Positions 24,001 through 31,603 of a stretch of 64,000 nt of DNA are shown here, piece by piece. How positions within the stretch are numbered: position 1 is the stretch's first letter; every line of letters starts with the position of its first letter. A program made the position numbers and the translations under genes. The stretch is from a phage. The stretch is from the sequence record PZ445437.1; one strand, given 5' to 3'. The notes below the pieces were generated by a model, which did not search any database, was not told the origin of the DNA, and saw only the letters and a list, made by a program, of their open reading frames with translations.

Positions 24001-26058
24001 CTACATCTTGAACTTTTTAGACATTCCGTTGATGTTAACCAAAGAAGCCAAGATTTGAGAAACTTCGTTTTCCTCTTCTTTTGATTCTTCTACAAGGAAT
24101 TGATTAAACCCGGCCATTGGACGAACTTCGCCAGTTTCCATTAGATGATCGCCATCATATACCGATTCTTCTAATTGTTCAGAAGGAGGAACGATTGTGC
24201 CTTCGATTAGATACTTGTTATAAGCAGTTTCTTTCATCATGTACGTGCTTACTTTATTAATCTTCAACAAAATTCCACGCGGTAGAATAACTTCAGCTTC
24301 TGATGGAAATCCTGATAAATGACCTGGAACGATAACTTTGATTCGCTCAGCTCCTTTAATTACCATACCCACGCTAGTTTCAGCATCTTCATTAGCATAT
24401 GTAGAATGACTACCCATATGCATCAAATCTTCTGCATCAACAGAACCTTCTCCTTCGCCAGAAAATACTGCACCGGAATCATCTAGAGCCATATAGTTTT
24501 TACCATGCTCACCGAAGATATTTGGTTTAAGTGATGTCGATACGAAGTTCTTGAAATAGAACATTTTATTTTCAATATTGTGACGCAAAGTTTTAAAGGT
24601 AACTTCTTGTCCACGGTAAAGTGTAGTTCCTGGAGGAAGAACTGAACCTTTAGCGAATGCAGAATCCAGCGTCTCAATATGTTTAATAGCTCGTTCCATA
24701 TATTCTTCACGGGTAGAATCTGGTTTACCCAAAAGGAACGAGTTCATTTCAACATATGAATCTGCGCAATAATCTTCAATTACGTCAGATTCAGCCTGAG
24801 TTAATCCTTTTGGAGTTACTTCAGTACTTGCATATTCATATGCCTGAGCGGCAGATTCATTAATCAATTTATAAATGCCATTCATGACAAATTGAATAAT
24901 AGCTGTCTTTTCATCTGGCGTAGCTTTAGAACCTTTAACTAAATCATTGATAATTTTCTTAATAACATCAAAACTATTAGAAATATTAATATCAGCAAGA
25001 TCGCTTAAAATTTTATCAGTTTTATAATCAAAGAATTCTTTATTCTTTAAATATTCTTGAGAACCTTGATATGATGTATCGCTCTGCAACTTGATAGATG
25101 GATCACGTAAACGCGCATGGGCTAATGCAATATGATTTCGGAAGTTTTCTAGTTCATAATCGTTAGATTTAAAACGAGAAGCACTTCTCATACCACCGAT
25201 AGCTCCTTTGCCGAAGTTTGAACCAATCTGAATAACGCCAGAGTTCATTGGTCCTTCTGCTTTATATACCGGAACTTTGGATTCAAACTCTTGATATTTC
25301 TTAGCAGCGAAGCTATCACCCTGAAGTGAAGCATCAACAGTAGAATATTGAGCTTGTGCTGCTAATCGACGACTAATTTTAGTTTTCTGAATAACAGCTT
25401 GATCCGTGCGCTTATCATTTTCCAAAGCAATAGAAGCAGCAACTGCGACAGCTTTAGGAACAGCATTACCTGTTTTAACGTCTACATAAACATCACCAAC
25501 CTTTGATTCAACTTTTGTGAATAACTCAGTTGAAATAGGAGGTACACCTGGAATGTCTTCTAAATTGGCATTTTTACGGTAAACCATAATATATGCATAT
25601 TTCTTATCATAGTCCCAGATTTCCTTTAAAAGAACATATCGACCTGCTCCTTTAGTACGTACTAAACGGTCAGCAATAACTTGCATTTGACGAGCAGCGC
25701 CATTTGTTTTACTCTTTAGTACGCGGAATAAGCATGCATCAATTTTATACTGTTTCATTGTTTGAAGAGCAGTATCAAAAACAGCATTAATGACGCCAAT
25801 TGGATTTCCACCCAAGTTTTTAAGCTTAACTAATGATAGTTTCTCATTAACACCTATCATTACGATATGCATCATTTTGTCGCCTGGCTTAACGTTTTTA
25901 TTCGTATCACCGCCAGAGGTGTATGTACAAAATCTAAATCCAGGAAGCACGCTTTCTTCACCGGCTTGAATAGCAAAAATTTGTGGTATTTTATGCTTAG
26001 GATTTAAGTTAACAACCGGCGCCGAAGCGCCGTCAAATAATTCTGTAATAAGTTCCAT
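24001..26058 (-). CDS. Alt-like ADP-ribosyltransferase, second paralog (packaged internal protein type)
   Basis: 685-aa ORF; N-terminus MELITELFD...NLNPKHKIPQIF near-identical to Alt; C-terminal R (LYRGQ), FVSTSL and EAEVILPRG motifs. Confidence 0.85.
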   Translation of the reverse strand: MELITELFDGASAPVVNLNPKHKIPQIFAIQAGEESVLPGFRFCTYTSGGDTNKNVKPGDKMMHIVMIGVNEKLSLVKLKNLGGNPIGVINAVFDTALQTMKQYKIDACLFRVLKSKTNGAARQMQVIADRLVRTKGAGRYVLLKEIWDYDKKYAYIMVYRKNANLEDIPGVPPISTELFTKVESKVGDVYVDVKTGNAVPKAVAVAASIALENDKRTDQAVIQKTKISRRLAAQAQYSTVDASLQGDSFAAKKYQEFESKVPVYKAEGPMNSGVIQIGSNFGKGAIGGMRSASRFKSNDYELENFRNHIALAHARLRDPSIKLQSDTSYQGSQEYLKNKEFFDYKTDKILSDLADINISNSFDVIKKIINDLVKGSKATPDEKTAIIQFVMNGIYKLINESAAQAYEYASTEVTPKGLTQAESDVIEDYCADSYVEMNSFLLGKPDSTREEYMERAIKHIETLDSAFAKGSVLPPGTTLYRGQEVTFKTLRHNIENKMFYFKNFVSTSLKPNIFGEHGKNYMALDDSGAVFSGEGEGSVDAEDLMHMGSHSTYANEDAETSVGMVIKGAERIKVIVPGHLSGFPSEAEVILPRGILLKINKVSTYMMKETAYNKYLIEGTIVPPSEQLEESVYDGDHLMETGEVRPMAGFNQFLVEESKEEENEVSQILASLVNINGMSKKFKM

Positions 26059-26061
26059 GAT

Positions 26062-28158
26062 TTATCCTTGAACGAACTTGTAAGGCATGTTTGTAATATC
26101 TATGCAAGACGCAATAATTCCAAGAGATGATTCTACTTTCTGTTTAACGTTTGATGAAACAAATGATGCAAAGTCAACTCTGTCTTCTATTTCAATATCA
26201 CCTGTCATTGCAACTACTTCGCCGGTTTCCATTAAATGGTCTCCATCATAGATTACCGATTCGGTGAGCTCTTCCGTGGTCATAACTTCAGCTTGAATGA
26301 GTTTTGTATTATTAGACGTGGTTCCGTCATTATTAGAAGCATCAGTTATTTTATTAACTTTGACCATCAATCCGCGCGGTAGAATAACTTCAGCTTCTGT
26401 TGCTATTCCGAGACTTCCTGGATATACAACATTAACTTTATGAGCTCCATCAATTGCCCATCCTATTTGAACTTTAACGTATTCAGGATTTTCTTTATAC
26501 GCTCTTATTTCGTTTGGATTAATAGTTATTCCTTCTTCATTTTTATCAACTGTCAATTCATTACGAGCTTCTGGTTCTAAAAGACCAATACCAGCATGTG
26601 TAATTCCAAAACGTCCAAAAATGATAGGAGTTAAAGAAGTAGATACAAAATTTCTGAAATAGAACACTTTATTTTTAACTAGTGCTTCGTATATAGGAGC
26701 AGTCATACTTTGAGCACGATAAACTGTGATGCCTTCCGGTATGCGGTCACCATTTTCAAAAGCTGAATCTAAGTTATTTATAGCAGATTCAATTTCTTTT
26801 TCACTCATTACATCATATCGTTCTGGATTGTAACGACCTAAAAGAAGATTATTGATGTCAGTATATCCTGAACCACAATATTCTCTAATGCCACGCTTTT
26901 GTGATGGAGTATATTTAGAACCATCGCGGGCAATAGTAATATCAATCATTGGACCAGCACCAATTCCAGAAAAACTGTAAATCATTCGTTTGAGGAATTT
27001 AGTTTTTGCTGCGTTCCAGGAATTTTTAGTTATTTCTTCCCAGACTTCATCTGGTTGTCCTTTACGATTTTTATTATGATTAGCAAGCCATTTATCTTTA
27101 TAATCTTCAAAGAATTGATTTACAGCTGCTGCGTATTTCTCTAAACATTTTATTGAAGTAGTTGGTTCATTTTTAATTGCATTAAAAATTACTTCTTTAA
27201 TTTTTTCTGAAACTTCACCGACTTGACTCATTGGAAAGAATTTATAATCATAGTGAAGTTCATCTGCCGTTCCTTCAGCAATAATTTTTGCTGCCTTTGT
27301 TTTAGAAGCTAATGAATTAATTCCAATTTTCATTTCTTCTGCTTCGGGAATTAAAGGTGCAGTAGCAGGTTTATTGAAATTAGCTGCGGTAGATTCATAC
27401 TTCTGGAATAATTCACTTTCAAATCTAGAAGATTCCAATGATTGACTTTGCGCAATTGCTCTACGGGAAATTTTAACTTTAACGATTACAGCTTGGTCAG
27501 AACGTTTATCATTTTCTTGTGCAATAGATGCTGCAATTGCCTCATTTTTAGTTACTTGAGCTCCAGTATCTTTATTGATATAAACATCGCCGACTTTCGA
27601 TTCAACTTTAGTAAAGAGCTCGGTACTAATTTCCGGAACTCCTGGAATGTCTTCTAGTGATACATTTTTGCGATGTATAAGAATATATGCATACTTTTTA
27701 TCATAATCCCAGAGTTCCTTAAGAAGGACGTATCTGCCACCTGAACGACTACGGATAAGTCTATCAGCAATAACTTGAATTTGTCGAGCTTGACCAGCGG
27801 TTTTAGACTTAAGAATACGAAGCATACAAGCATCAATTTTATACTGACGCATTGTTTGCATTGCAACAGTAAAAACTGAATTGATATAATTAATTGGGCT
27901 TGGACCGAGACCTTTTAATTTAGCAATTGAACCTTTGGCAGTTAATGTAAAAGGAACAATATGCATCATTTTATCGCCCATCTTTAAATCGCGATTAGTA
28001 TCACCTCCAGATGTATAGGTGCATAAACGAAAGCCTGGTTGTTCAATTGCATCATCAACACGAACTGAAAAAATTTGCGGTATTTTCTTCTTTGGATTTA
28101 AGTTTGTAATCGGAAGAGTAGTATCTTCGTCAAATAATTCTGTAATAAGTTCCATCAT
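26062..28158 (-). CDS. alt: Alt ADP-ribosyltransferase
   Basis: 698-aa ORF MMELITELFDEDTTLPITNLNPKKKIPQIFSV... recognised as T4 Alt; R (VYRAQ), FVSTSL, EAEVILPRG motifs. Confidence 0.93.
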   Translation of the reverse strand: MMELITELFDEDTTLPITNLNPKKKIPQIFSVRVDDAIEQPGFRLCTYTSGGDTNRDLKMGDKMMHIVPFTLTAKGSIAKLKGLGPSPINYINSVFTVAMQTMRQYKIDACMLRILKSKTAGQARQIQVIADRLIRSRSGGRYVLLKELWDYDKKYAYILIHRKNVSLEDIPGVPEISTELFTKVESKVGDVYINKDTGAQVTKNEAIAASIAQENDKRSDQAVIVKVKISRRAIAQSQSLESSRFESELFQKYESTAANFNKPATAPLIPEAEEMKIGINSLASKTKAAKIIAEGTADELHYDYKFFPMSQVGEVSEKIKEVIFNAIKNEPTTSIKCLEKYAAAVNQFFEDYKDKWLANHNKNRKGQPDEVWEEITKNSWNAAKTKFLKRMIYSFSGIGAGPMIDITIARDGSKYTPSQKRGIREYCGSGYTDINNLLLGRYNPERYDVMSEKEIESAINNLDSAFENGDRIPEGITVYRAQSMTAPIYEALVKNKVFYFRNFVSTSLTPIIFGRFGITHAGIGLLEPEARNELTVDKNEEGITINPNEIRAYKENPEYVKVQIGWAIDGAHKVNVVYPGSLGIATEAEVILPRGLMVKVNKITDASNNDGTTSNNTKLIQAEVMTTEELTESVIYDGDHLMETGEVVAMTGDIEIEDRVDFASFVSSNVKQKVESSLGIIASCIDITNMPYKFVQG

Positions 28159-28209: not shown

Positions 28210-28396
28210 AATAATCTATTGGTAAGAGAGTACGATATATTTCAAACTTTGGACCTTTTTCATAAGCATCAAAAGTTTCTGTGAATTTATTATAAGCATA
28301 TGCATCTATAAATTCAATCATGATTTGTGATACAGAAGTAGAAACATCTCCACCTTCTTTTTGAGCCACGACAATTGTTTCTAAGTAAGCTTTCAT
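28208..28396 (-). CDS. hypothetical small protein between DNA ligase and alt
   Basis: 62-aa ORF, ATG overlapping ligase stop (ATGA). Confidence 0.6.
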   Translation of the reverse strand: MKAYLETIVVAQKEGGDVSTSVSQIMIEFIDAYAYNKFTETFDAYEKGPKFEIYRTLLPIDY

Positions 28397-29856
28397 AGAC
28401 CAGTTACCTCATGAAAATCACCAAATACATCTTCGAATGTATTAGCTTTAGTTTTATCTTCACGTAAACGAATCGCAATCGGAAGAAATAATTTAACGTA
28501 ATCAGTGCGGCCATCGGATTTTAACCAACCGTTGCATTCGCACTCTAGAATTTTTCCAATATAATAATTTTGGTTTTCCATAATGCGAGTACGGTCAAGT
28601 TCATGTGATTTTACGCCGGCTTTATCTTTTAAGCCTGAACCGGCATTTACCTTAATTTTTCCACACTCTGACTCAAGAATAAATCCACCTGCTTTAGTAG
28701 GGTCTTTACGGTGAGGATAAATTCCTACAATTTTTAAATCAACATCAATTACTTCTTTAAATTTATAGAGATTTTTTGAACGAGCATTTTCCCATAATCC
28801 ATCGATATTTTTGAGAATAATACCTTCAAGACCTTGGTCAATATACTTTTTATAAATTACCTTAGCTTCATCTAGGTTATTTACTACTTGGTTTTCAATT
28901 AAAATTACTTTATCATATCCTGATGTCATTTGTTCTAATTTAGAAAAACGTACATCATATTTTAAACGAAATGCTGGAAGACCGTATATTTCTACCAACG
29001 GAACATAATCCCAGACCTGAAACTTCATGCATTGAGCTTCTTTTTCTGAAATAGTTCCCTTTAAAGATTTATTAGCGATTCCATTAGAAGTAGTACGTGA
29101 TTCAGCTACTTCAGCAAACTCTTTAGCTTTACTAATTTCAGGATAAGCATCAAAAAGAAAATCTAGGCCTTCTGGCTCCTTTTTAACTTGCTCATGGTAT
29201 ACCAATTCGCCATCAATTAACACACCTTCTGGATGAATCTGGCGGGCTTCAGCGGTCATTTTGATTAACTCTTCCTTAAGAAGATCTAATCCTAGATATT
29301 CATTACCAGCTCGTGATAAAAGACGGACATCATCTAATTCATCACCTCTAACTTCAGCAAAACACCGAGCTCCATCTGCTTTTAATTGTGCAAAGGCTGG
29401 AAATTTGATATTCTTACTAATGCCTTTTTCATCATAAGAACTTGCGAGCATTTGAGGTTGTTCAGGAATTAAACCTGGCCAAACTTTGTTTGCAATAGAT
29501 ACTGAAGCACCACATTCAAGGTCTCGCATCATCACTCGACGCAAAACTTCAACATCATCTTTTTTACCATCAGTGATATATCCAGTTAATTCCTCAATTG
29601 CCGCATTTCCAGTCAATTTCCGAGTAGCTAACGTGAATTCAATGAAGTCAAGCATATCGGTAAGAGTCAACATTCCAAAACTCTGGGTAGCAATACCAGA
29701 TTTAGGCCATTTCTTGATATAATACTGCAACCCACGAGAATAAGTCAGACGATATACTCGTTTAAGCAATTCATTATCTTTATTCTTTTCAAGAATTGCT
29801 TGCTTCTGCTTAGTTGAACCAATAGATGCTATTTCGTTCAGAATTTTAAGAATCAT
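28393..29856 (-). CDS. 30: ATP-dependent DNA ligase gp30
   Basis: 487-aa ORF recognised as T4 DNA ligase (MILKILNEIASIGSTKQKQAILEKNKDNELLKRVYRL...; KADGAR adenylation motif). Confidence 0.97.
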   Translation of the reverse strand: MILKILNEIASIGSTKQKQAILEKNKDNELLKRVYRLTYSRGLQYYIKKWPKSGIATQSFGMLTLTDMLDFIEFTLATRKLTGNAAIEELTGYITDGKKDDVEVLRRVMMRDLECGASVSIANKVWPGLIPEQPQMLASSYDEKGISKNIKFPAFAQLKADGARCFAEVRGDELDDVRLLSRAGNEYLGLDLLKEELIKMTAEARQIHPEGVLIDGELVYHEQVKKEPEGLDFLFDAYPEISKAKEFAEVAESRTTSNGIANKSLKGTISEKEAQCMKFQVWDYVPLVEIYGLPAFRLKYDVRFSKLEQMTSGYDKVILIENQVVNNLDEAKVIYKKYIDQGLEGIILKNIDGLWENARSKNLYKFKEVIDVDLKIVGIYPHRKDPTKAGGFILESECGKIKVNAGSGLKDKAGVKSHELDRTRIMENQNYYIGKILECECNGWLKSDGRTDYVKLFLPIAIRLREDKTKANTFEDVFGDFHEVTGL

Positions 29857-30122
29857 TGTTCATCCTTTAGAGTTTGGTTTACAGCTCTATTATAAATCAA
29901 TTCATCATTAAGCTCAGTCAAAGACCTATGGTACGTGGTTCTAACTTTATTTCCTTGCATCCAGTGTTTGACGTAAATGAAACCTTGCTCTACACATTTT
30001 TTAAAAATTCGTTCGTCTTTTTGAGCTCGGAATTCTGGATTGCATCTAAAAAATTGATTTACGTGACCGTAATCACGTGTAGTATTACCTTCATTTTCAT
30101 AAATAGTGTGAACAACAAACAT
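29853..30122 (-). CDS. hypothetical protein (T4 30.1 position)
   Basis: 89-aa ORF, ATGA overlap with ligase start region. Confidence 0.7.
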   Translation of the reverse strand: MFVVHTIYENEGNTTRDYGHVNQFFRCNPEFRAQKDERIFKKCVEQGFIYVKHWMQGNKVRTTYHRSLTELNDELIYNRAVNQTLKDEQ

Positions 30123-30949
30123 TAGAATGCTCCTTGGAAAATATTATCACCACTAGTAGGTCTATTATACAAATACTCTATGCCACCAGGTTTAATATAG
30201 TTCCATGTCTGAAACGGATGTGTCTGATATGGATTATAAGGATTAAATCCAGGAGTTCTCCAGGTAGTGTTCCAACGAAAAGAATCATTTTTAATCATCT
30301 TTTCAATTACATCTTTTATAGCTTTTTCACTATCAAAACTTTCTTTATTTTCCTTTGGTGAAAAAAGCTTATTCTCTACATCGTTCCATGTATAAACTCG
30401 CTGAGCGGTTTTTGGAATACTGTCACGTTCCCCTCGAGCCATCCAATACACAGGAACACGTAATATTTCACTCGCATGATCGCAGTGGTGAGCGAGATCG
30501 TCAATATAACAAATTACGTTATATTTCTCTTTTGCCTTTTTGAACAACTCTTCTTTTGAAGAATCATGACCACACATCATTACTTCTGAGAAGGCACCAG
30601 GAAAAAGAGCATTCAAATTAAATTGACGATTCAGCAGAGCGTCAATAGAATCACCCAATGCTGTAACAGCTACAAAATTATAATCTTCTTTTAATTTGTT
30701 AATTACACACAGGGCATCTTTATATGGAGACAAGTAACGAATAAAATCTGAACGATTGTATTTTTCAATTAGCTTAACGCCAAGCTCTTCATCGCAATTA
30801 AATAGTTTACCTGGAGAGATAAATTTCTCATCTTGGATCATTTTTAAAATATGTTCCAACGGAAGATTATATTTCTGAGCAAAATAAGGAAGACCTGATT
30901 GCCAGCTTAAACATACTCCATCAATATCAGTTAAAATAGTAGGCTTCAT
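30122..30949 (-). CDS. HAD-superfamily hydrolase-like protein (T4 30.2 position)
   Basis: 275-aa ORF; N-terminal LTDIDGV (HAD motif I DxDG[TV]) and later ICYIDDL (motif IV). Confidence 0.75.
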   Translation of the reverse strand: MKPTILTDIDGVCLSWQSGLPYFAQKYNLPLEHILKMIQDEKFISPGKLFNCDEELGVKLIEKYNRSDFIRYLSPYKDALCVINKLKEDYNFVAVTALGDSIDALLNRQFNLNALFPGAFSEVMMCGHDSSKEELFKKAKEKYNVICYIDDLAHHCDHASEILRVPVYWMARGERDSIPKTAQRVYTWNDVENKLFSPKENKESFDSEKAIKDVIEKMIKNDSFRWNTTWRTPGFNPYNPYQTHPFQTWNYIKPGGIEYLYNRPTSGDNIFQGAF

Positions 30950-31404
30950 AGAGAGTCTCTTAATAGGTTTAACACATCAATAAATTCAGCTTCGGTTAGT
31001 ATTGTATCATCTTTTGTTAGATCACTAGCCATGCTGTGCTTCAAAACTTTTCCTTTCGAGGCTTGTAATGCATCACGAAAGCCCTTGTTTTGGATCGCTG
31101 CTTCAAAATATGCATTTGTGTATAATTCTTTCCACGCCGGGGAGTATCTTGAAAACGGAACTCCAAGCCAGAAGAGGGTCCCACGGTCCTGAGCTCTAGC
31201 ATAAGACCTTCCAGCTTGTTGGGCGGCAAGCCCGGATAACCCAAATATACGACGTTGTTGTTCAACATTTTTCACCTTACACCCTTGGAGGAATCCTTCA
31301 AGACCTCCAAATTGAATACCATCCATAACGAAAGGCCATTGGGCGAAATTACTTAATGCACATGATGGCCACCTAAAATTACTTCTAATCTCTAACTCAG
31401 ACAT
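30946..31404 (-). CDS. YbiA/NADAR-family protein (T4 30.3 position)
   Basis: motif ALSNFAQWPFVMDG...EGFLQGCK parallels E. coli YbiA FSNFAAWPIKVDG...EHYFQAQK (recalled); ORF-track start is TTG, first ATG at 31404. Confidence 0.7.
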   Translation of the reverse strand: MSELEIRSNFRWPSCALSNFAQWPFVMDGIQFGGLEGFLQGCKVKNVEQQRRIFGLSGLAAQQAGRSYARAQDRGTLFWLGVPFSRYSPAWKELYTNAYFEAAIQNKGFRDALQASKGKVLKHSMASDLTKDDTILTEAEFIDVLNLLRDSL

Positions 31405-31603
31405 TTTCAATGCTTATAATTTCAACATCAGCCCAATGACCATAGCAAGGAAGACGAAATTCAACTGGCCAGTTAGGGTCCTTTTCTAATATAATAGACT
31501 TAACTTGTGGTTCTTCGTGTTCATCAGTATACGGATTTTTATCTGTTACTTTATATGTGACCTTAATGTACTGAATTCCAAAAATCTTATTAATTATATT
31601 CAT
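31397..31603 (-). CDS. hypothetical protein
   Basis: 68-aa ORF, ATG, translationally coupled in 30.x operon. Confidence 0.6.
   Translation of the reverse strand: MNIINKIFGIQYIKVTYKVTDKNPYTDEHEEPQVKSIILEKDPNWPVEFRLPCYGHWADVEIISIENV

Follow-up and report, generated by a model that had tools for sequence, protein, structure and literature searches.

adfN (gene 30.3) and its HAD phosphatase-like neighbour 30.2 in the DNA ligase region of a T4-like phage

The 64,000-nucleotide (nt) stretch of phage sequence record PZ445437.1, referred to here as the window, belongs to a Tequatrovirus, i.e. a T4-like phage, and carries on its minus strand two adjacent early genes, 30.3 and 30.2, which are, with high confidence, functionally separate. 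Gene 30.3 encodes AdfN, an N-glycosidase of the NADAR type, and 30.2 a predicted HAD phosphatase that stands apart from counter-defence. The activity of AdfN and the phenotypes associated with it were demonstrated in published work on the 99%-identical protein of phage T4, and are connected here with the window gene through identity, fold, and motifs. Gene names were assigned by comparison with the T4 reference record. A nucleotide comparison of the ~1.9 kb around these genes gives 99.3% identity to Escherichia phage KarlGJung, and the same region matches 685 phage records, nearly all of them T4-like.

A preliminary description of the window, made from its letters, had placed two open reading frames (ORFs) here; both are found at those positions on the minus strand, and all four peptide strings quoted from them are present. 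The 152-residue ORF contains ...CALSNFAQWPFVMDGIQFGGLEGFLQGCKV..., and within the 275-residue ORF are found MKPTILTDIDGV... and ...NVICYIDDL.... For 30.3, the start annotated in T4 is the ATG at 31404 (the mechanical list of ORFs extends the frame to a TTG at 31410), and with this ATG the published catalytic residues land on E36 and K43. The principal features are as follows.

30946-31404 (-): gene 30.3 = adfN, 152 residues, gp30.3-type NADAR DNA ADP-ribosylglycohydrolase
31297-31299 (-): codon of E36, catalytic glutamate of AdfN, GAA in the sequence, invariant
31276-31278 (-): codon of K43, catalytic lysine of AdfN, AAG in the sequence, nearly invariant
31036-31038 (-): codon of H123, located in the last strand and defining for phage (gp30.3-type) NADARs, CAC in the sequence, invariant
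30122-30949 (-): gene 30.2, 275 residues; residues 1-195, predicted C1-capped HAD-superfamily phosphatase-type domain; residues ~200-275, tail of low model confidence
30920-30928 (-): HAD motif I of gp30.2 (D8-I-D10), putative nucleophile Asp and general acid/base Asp, GAT ATT GAT in the sequence, invariant

Identity, fold, and published function of gp30.3

The product of 30.3 is a protein of the NADAR superfamily, and the gene is adfN. It is identical to T4 gp30.3 in 150 of 152 residues and equal to it in length, the two substitutions (M125 for I and D128 for G) being conservative and located at non-catalytic positions. In Pfam it matches PF08010 (Phage_30_3) over profile positions 1-138 of 138, with 235 bits (cutoff 36) and E 2.6e-70, and it also matches PHROG 652 (E 3.8e-51). 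Single-sequence searches of gp30.3, as well as of gp30.2, against PDB sequences returned only noise, and family profiles were required. The gp30.3 family profile matches YbiA of Escherichia coli (PDB 2b3w) with E 1.4e-3 over the motif region, in which YbiA reads FSNFAAWPIKVDGKTWPTSEHYFQAQKF opposite the family consensus; the YbiA motif given in the preliminary description was thus accurate, and it aligns to exactly the stretch of 30.3 with which it had been compared. The NADAR model of Pfam, PF08719, is matched by 12 of 30 diverse gp30.3 homologues (best E 1.5e-7). The profile searches suggested together with that description gave matches to PF08010 and, at the level of the family, to PF08719, but with no direct match of either window protein to the NADAR or HAD models of Pfam.

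The structural evidence points the same way. The AlphaFold2 (AF2) model of gp30.3 has a mean predicted local distance difference test score (pLDDT) of 93.3 and a predicted template-modelling score (pTM) of 0.88. The top three matches to this model found by Foldseek in the PDB are all NADAR structures, namely YbiA (2b3w), PnNADAR from Phytophthora (8bau), and GlNADAR of the DarG1 type from Geobacter (8bat), each with a probability of at least 0.99, whereas the match that follows has a probability of just 0.08. The expectation that a structure prediction would superimpose on YbiA as a NADAR fold, and that the smaller ORF is of the NADAR/YbiA type, is borne out by the Foldseek matches and, at the level of the family, by the profile matches.

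An alignment of 30 homologues shows no variation at residues E36, G37, F38, Q40, and H123 and hardly any at K43. Relative to YbiA, the second motif carries Gly in place of His and Phe in place of Tyr, which had been read as a possible sign of altered activity. This reading fails, since all members of the gp30.3 family have E-G-F-x-Q, and guanine-ADP-ribose is hydrolysed in vitro by T4 gp30.3 as it is by YbiA. The residue located in the last strand is His in phage NADARs, Glu in YbiA, and Asp in the DarG1 type (PMC11125620, PMC11543638). The window protein is full length with an intact C-terminal helix and ends with ...LTEAEFIDVLNLLRDSL, identical to T4; the annotated 30.3 of RB69 is 414 nt long, lacks the C-terminal helix, and represents an inactive allele.

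That the smaller gene might serve as a counter-defence against toxins that ADP-ribosylate DNA, as suggested in the preliminary description, has been demonstrated experimentally for T4 AdfN and is already published. Johannesman et al. (Nat Commun 2025, PMC11825919) mapped the resistance to DarTG1 in T-even phages to gene 30.3 with the use of chimeras and renamed it adfN (anti-DarT factor NADAR). Deletion of adfN from T4 abolishes plating on DarTG1 hosts, both deletion and complementation having been tested, and T4 AdfN is impaired by E36A, by K43A, and by a C-terminal truncation of the RB69 type, with the catalytic mutants complementing incompletely (PMC11825919). Purified T4 AdfN alone strips ADP-ribose from DNA in vitro (PMC11825919). 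T4 gp30.3 is reported to hydrolyse guanine-ADP-ribose in vitro, but not thymine-ADP-ribose. In a transposon screen of T4 described in the HIDEN-SEQ preprint, 30.3 is non-essential on E. coli K-12, with 27 of 28 TA sites hit. On a DarTG1 host insertions in 30.3 are lost (log2 fold change (log2FC) -7.25, adjusted p 0), and on a DarTG2 host the gene is unaffected (log2FC 0.03).

In the mechanism that best explains these data, host DarT1 ADP-ribosylates the N2 amino group of guanine in single-stranded phage DNA, by which replication is blocked. AdfN then hydrolyses the bond between ribose and guanine, releasing ADP-ribose and restoring the normal base, so that replication can proceed. Catalysis involves E36 and K43 together with H123, the latter being the equivalent, in the phage subfamily, of the Glu of YbiA and the Asp of DarG1. 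DarTG2 is not countered, since AdfN is inactive on thymine adducts. On naive E. coli K-12 the phage can do without the gene, but on DarTG1 hosts it cannot.

Truncated remnants of 30.3 are present in many T4-like phages (homologues P0107, P0114-P0117, P0149, and P0194), some of them fused to 30.3', 30.7, or 30.8 sequence. As judged from the sequences, these remnants indicate a probable recurrent deletion and loss of adfN in a variable region.

Gene 30.2, a predicted HAD phosphatase in the ligase region

The window gp30.2 is 97% identical to T4 gp30.2 and matches PHROG 420, a family labelled "unknown function", with E 6e-94. Comparison of gp30.2 with Pfam and NCBIfam gave no assignment, and no HAD model was reached. 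Matches appear among its relatives, with 9 of 33 matching PF00702 (HAD; best E 3.5e-4) and 5 of 33 matching NT5C (PF06941; best E 1.2e-4), the latter all below the gathering score. The only PDB match of the gp30.2 family profile is deoxyribonucleotidase 2jao, with E 0.02.

The four HAD motifs can be located in gp30.2 as D8-I-D10-G-V, T96, K132, and D150-D151. Across an alignment of 33 diverse sequences there is no variation at D8, D10, K132, D150, or D151, and at least 90% conservation at T96. The presence of the second Asp of motif I (D10) is a trait typical of phosphatases. The model of gp30.2 has pLDDT above 90 for residues 1-190 and consists there of a Rossmann-like core, into which a helical cap is inserted behind motif I, while the confidence for residues ~200-275 is low. 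The HAD-like character proposed for the 275-residue ORF in the preliminary description is thus supported by the predicted fold and by all four catalytic motifs. Since the window protein has no HAD match in Pfam or NCBIfam, its membership in the superfamily rests on the modelled fold and the motifs, from which it can be predicted with confidence. The protein would be a DxD-type HAD phosphatase dependent on Mg2+, with Asp8 as the nucleophile, Asp10 as the general acid/base, and Thr96, Lys132, and Asp150/151 completing the active site. In the HAD superfamily a helical C1 cap indicates a small-molecule substrate. For gp30.2 our best guess, a weak one drawn from the closest resemblance, is that the substrate may be a small molecule, perhaps a (deoxy)nucleoside monophosphate.

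The tail of gp30.2 (30122-30350, minus strand) contains a short conserved motif, G-I-E-Y-L-x-N/R-x-P-T, that is common to Klebsiella-type and other homologues, and the whole tail is missing from the versions found in Acinetobacter, Serratia, and Shewanella phages. This motif may serve for docking. Homologues of gp30.2 occur throughout T4-like phages, with a few records annotating a HAD hydrolase. Members of the extended family with extra regions (P0253, P0311, P0206, P0245, and others) were examined for informative domain fusions, but these regions have no Pfam match, and literature searches for published work on gp30.2 gave nothing.

The genomic neighbourhood of the two families was compared in 78 viral-contig loci found with the 30.2 family and 80 loci found with the 30.3 family, with neighbours recorded within 6 kb. 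DNA ligase lies directly downstream of 30.2 in 73 of the 78 viral-contig loci, and a gp30.3-type NADAR gene is found near 30.2 in 37 of them. Conversely, a 30.2-type HAD gene accompanies the NADAR gene in 19 of the 80 loci and is missing from the other 61. In at least 11 T4-like genomes, identified by cross-matching contig names between the two sets of loci, both genes are present but lie ~60 kb apart. Gene 30.1 occurs in 24 of 79 loci and sits between 30.2 and ligase solely in T-even-type phages.

In the HIDEN-SEQ data insertions hit 72 of 72 TA sites of gene 30.2, which is non-essential, and the gene is neutral under DarTG1 (log2FC -0.12, p 0.61, 71 sites), as well as under DarTG2 (log2FC 0.00). 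Exactly two genes, 30.3 and 30.4, are significant in the DarTG1 data sheet, and alt, modA, modB, nudE, pseT, and 61.2 are all flat. On the basis of the locus counts and the published transposon genetics, the adjacency of 30.3 and 30.2 reflects lineage-specific synteny around ligase, and the two genes do not work as a pair, contrary to what the preliminary description had proposed. Gene 30.2 travels with DNA ligase and other replication genes across T4-like phages, rather than with the NADAR gene. The candidacy of gp30.2 as the T-even partner of AdfN was considered separately and rejected on the transposon data.

Where distant homologues of 30.2 have no adjacent ligase, they lie beside a UvsX recombinase (L067:6001-7709) or beside a gp59 helicase loader together with a PD-(D/E)XK nuclease and a patatin-like phospholipase (L072:5288-8662). 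The UvsX, gp59, and nuclease neighbours are consistent with a putative role of 30.2 in DNA or nucleotide metabolism. In a 22.8-kb viral contig (L098:5905-7753) a gp30.3-type NADAR gene is followed by a DNA ligase homologue, with the HAD gene absent between them.

Translation of adfN and alternative explanations

The end of 30.4 and the beginning of 30.3 overlap in ATGTCTGA, with the ATG of adfN lying 8 nt inside the end of 30.4. Shine-Dalgarno (SD) pairing ahead of adfN is essentially nil, with a free energy (dG) of -0.7 kcal/mol, compared to -5.4 to -7.7 for its neighbours and a background mean of -1.8. An SD-less start of adfN inside 30.4 is found in 14 of 14 T-even-type loci (mean dG -0.84), whereas NADAR genes without 30.4 (n = 60) have an SD of their own (mean dG -5.2). 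Gene 30.4 is restricted to T-even-type phages, with 720 records, and the same overlap is present in T4, in the window phage, and in RB69, a phage in which ectopic AdfN is reported to be fully functional. In T-even-type phages, ribosomes that finish 30.4 would start adfN by translational coupling. From these features of the sequence we infer that adfN is probably translated through such coupling, with 30.4 as its translational leader. Under DarTG1, 30.4 is depleted in the HIDEN-SEQ screen (log2FC -1.79, adjusted p 0.014) as the only significant gene besides 30.3, and its log2FC of -0.03 under DarTG2 makes the depletion specific to DarTG1. The text of the preprint is silent on this hit and claims no role for 30.4. 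Insertions in 30.4 would lower the translation of AdfN, which would explain the partial depletion.

The same data could be read as evidence that 30.4 and 30.3 form a two-protein counter-defence unit, in which gp30.4, beyond being a translational leader, would be the T-even-specific factor without which AdfN is not fully active in vivo. The DarTG1-specific depletion of 30.4 fits this proposal, as do the retention of the overlap in the three phages, including RB69, where ectopic AdfN works fully, and the restriction of 30.4 to T-even-type phages, which matches the range in which AdfN-T4 works. Coupling is nevertheless the simpler account, given the distribution of SD-less starts, and purified AdfN is active alone in vitro; with no role claimed for 30.4 in the preprint either, we consider the two-protein reading unlikely. 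Still less probable is the idea that gp30.3 is mainly an N-glycosidase of riboflavin intermediates, like YbiA, or a degrader of soluble immune signals derived from ADP-ribose, with the de-ADP-ribosylation of DNA as a side activity. YbiA is indeed the best structural match of gp30.3, and it too cleaves guanine-ADP-ribose in vitro, so that this activity does not discriminate between the possibilities. The genetics of T4 are, however, strong and specific: the deletion stops plating on DarTG1 hosts, catalytic mutants complement incompletely, the complete loss of 30.3 insertions occurs under DarTG1 only, and there is no phenotype on K-12 without the defence system.

Several points weigh against the assignment of AdfN and gp30.2 to separate functions, or against parts of it. 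The window protein differs from T4 AdfN at two positions, and the activity of this allele is predicted from its identity to the T4 protein. The window gp30.3 searched by itself has no match to PF08719 at E up to 1, and its link to NADAR holds at the level of family and fold only; for gp30.2, none of the named HAD subfamilies scores above a curated threshold, which makes the proposal of a nucleotide substrate a weak one. Uninfected cells are not protected from DarT1 by AdfN-T4, T5 and Bas25 are rescued only weakly, and the authors of the AdfN work suggest that there is a further T-even-encoded factor, so that the picture of an enzyme acting alone is incomplete. Although neutral in transposon sequencing, 30.2 may still contribute in a redundant or subtle way. 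Finally, GenBank contains 1437 phage records with 30.2 and 1510 with 30.3, with a near-identical genus profile. This high co-occurrence is confounded, as it shows only that both genes are near-core in Straboviridae.

Some of these points have a bearing on the pairing of NADAR (30.3) and HAD (30.2) as one unit for the processing of ADP-ribose or of nucleotide damage, in which the HAD enzyme would act on the released ADP-ribose or on a phosphorylated intermediate and would be needed for counter-defence. Besides the matching record counts and the reported need of AdfN for some T-even-specific factor, this proposal can draw on the overlap of the stop codon of 30.3 with the start of 30.2 (ATGA), which, together with the weak SD of 30.2 (dG -2.9), suggests that translation of the two genes is probably linked, and on the recurrence of the order NADAR-HAD-ligase in distant T4-like phages. 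It is already largely refuted, and we regard it as highly improbable, since 30.2 is neutral in the very screens in which 30.3 is lost and only 30.3 and 30.4 are significant, the HAD gene is missing from most NADAR loci or lies far away, and hydrolysis by NADAR requires no phosphatase step, the purified enzyme being sufficient in vitro. A different role for gp30.2 would be that of a 3'-phosphatase of DNA ends, preparing nicks for the adjacent ligase in the manner of the HAD domain of T4 polynucleotide kinase. The ligase neighbourhood and the helical cap described above both bear on this role, to which we assign a low probability. The preferred reading remains that of two adjacent genes, with AdfN in counter-defence and a predicted phosphatase apart from it.

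Genomic context and comparison with known systems

The remaining features of this part of the window are the following.

24001-26058 (-): alt paralogue, full length, 41% identical to T4 Alt
26062-28158 (-): alt paralogue, full length, 71% identical to T4 Alt
(-), between the alt paralogues and gene 30 in the gene list: alt.1
28393-29856 (-): gene 30, ATP-dependent DNA ligase (gp30), the gene most consistently linked to 30.2
29853-30122 (-): gene 30.1 (DUF3045), PF11243 with E 2.9e-64
31041-31268 (-): 30.3', ORF of 75 codons in an alternative frame within 30.3, annotated in T4
31397-31603 (-): gene 30.4, 68 residues, its last 8 nt overlapping the start of 30.3
(-), beyond 30.4 in the gene list compared with T4: rIII, 31, cd

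Ligase and two Alt genes are thus located where the preliminary description had placed them. The proximity to Alt is the ordinary synteny of the T4 early region, and insertions in alt are neutral under DarTG1. In T4 the second copy of alt is reduced to the fragments alt.-1 and alt.-2, whereas the window has two full-length paralogues of the Alt ADP-ribosyltransferase. The frame of 30.3' (+1 inside adfN) is open in 13 of 14 T-even-type orthologues, in some of which AdfN is just 86% identical, and is closed in distant NADAR genes. The best sigma-70-like site of the region, TTGACA-18-TAAAAT (32591-32562, minus strand), matches 11 of 12 consensus positions, a match to the consensus only, and lies upstream of 30.7. 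No terminator-like site was found on the minus strand between it and position 28000, the scanned region ending just past ligase. The number of sites from these promoter and terminator scans is that of the background, with 24 found versus 22.8 expected. Judging from this arrangement, genes 30.7 to 30 may form one early transcription unit.

The general significance of AdfN, namely that phages capture antitoxin-like enzymes to undo the ADP-ribosylation of DNA by DarTG1, is already published, and the window contributes only another nearly identical adfN allele. What is added here is, on one side, the separation of gp30.2, a predicted phosphatase that is non-essential and widespread (about 1,400 phage genomes), from counter-defence and its link to DNA ligase, by comparative evidence and that of a published screen. 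On the other side, the adfN gene of T-even-type phages is found to have no ribosome-binding site, its translation probably proceeding via 30.4, which either explains why 30.4 scored, without comment, in the transposon screen under DarTG1 or makes that hit interesting.

Among known systems, the closest is T4 gp30.3/AdfN itself (PMC11825919), the same gene in a sister phage, with E36, K43, and H123, as well as the neighbours 30.4 and 30.2, in common. E. coli YbiA shares with gp30.3 the fold (Foldseek E 1.7e-5, template-modelling score (TM) 0.67) and two sequence motifs, xSNFAxWP...DG and ExxxQxxK, and both YbiA and T4 gp30.3 cleave guanine-ADP-ribose in vitro. The two proteins are, however, only 18% identical, with Glu in the last strand of YbiA and His in that of gp30.3, and YbiA is encoded by a bacterial housekeeping or SOS-operon gene and acts on riboflavin intermediates, whereas gp30.3 serves in phage counter-defence. 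The nearest relative of the phage NADAR clade in evolution is reported to be DarG1, the NADAR antitoxin of DarTG1 (8bat from Geobacter lovleyi, and that of E. coli C7). It shares with AdfN both the fold and the reaction, the reversal of guanine ADP-ribosylation by DarT1. It differs in having Asp in the last strand and in rescuing uninfected cells from DarT1, whereas AdfN-T4 is fully effective only during infection by T-even phages and AdfN, unlike DarG1, is an orphan to which no toxin is linked.

By resemblance, gp30.2 is closest to the 5'(3')-deoxyribonucleotidases cdN/mdN and the NT5C family (2jao, 2i7d, and 3bwv; PF06941), which have the HAD core and helical cap in common with it and are among its top structural matches, at 16-21% identity. 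The segment DGVxxxW-x-S-G-L that follows motif I in gp30.2 aligns with DGVLADFESGL of the nucleotidases, and within the 30.2 family W16 and S18 do not vary; compared to these enzymes, gp30.2 has an extra tail of ~80 residues. In their role, AdfM (T4 tk.4, a macrodomain protein) and AdfA (T4 61.2) resemble AdfN in countering DarT toxins in T-even phages, but their folds and mechanisms are unrelated to those of AdfN and they are encoded elsewhere in the genome. For AdfM, a reversal of the thymine adducts that DarT2 forms has been proposed; AdfA binds the toxin.

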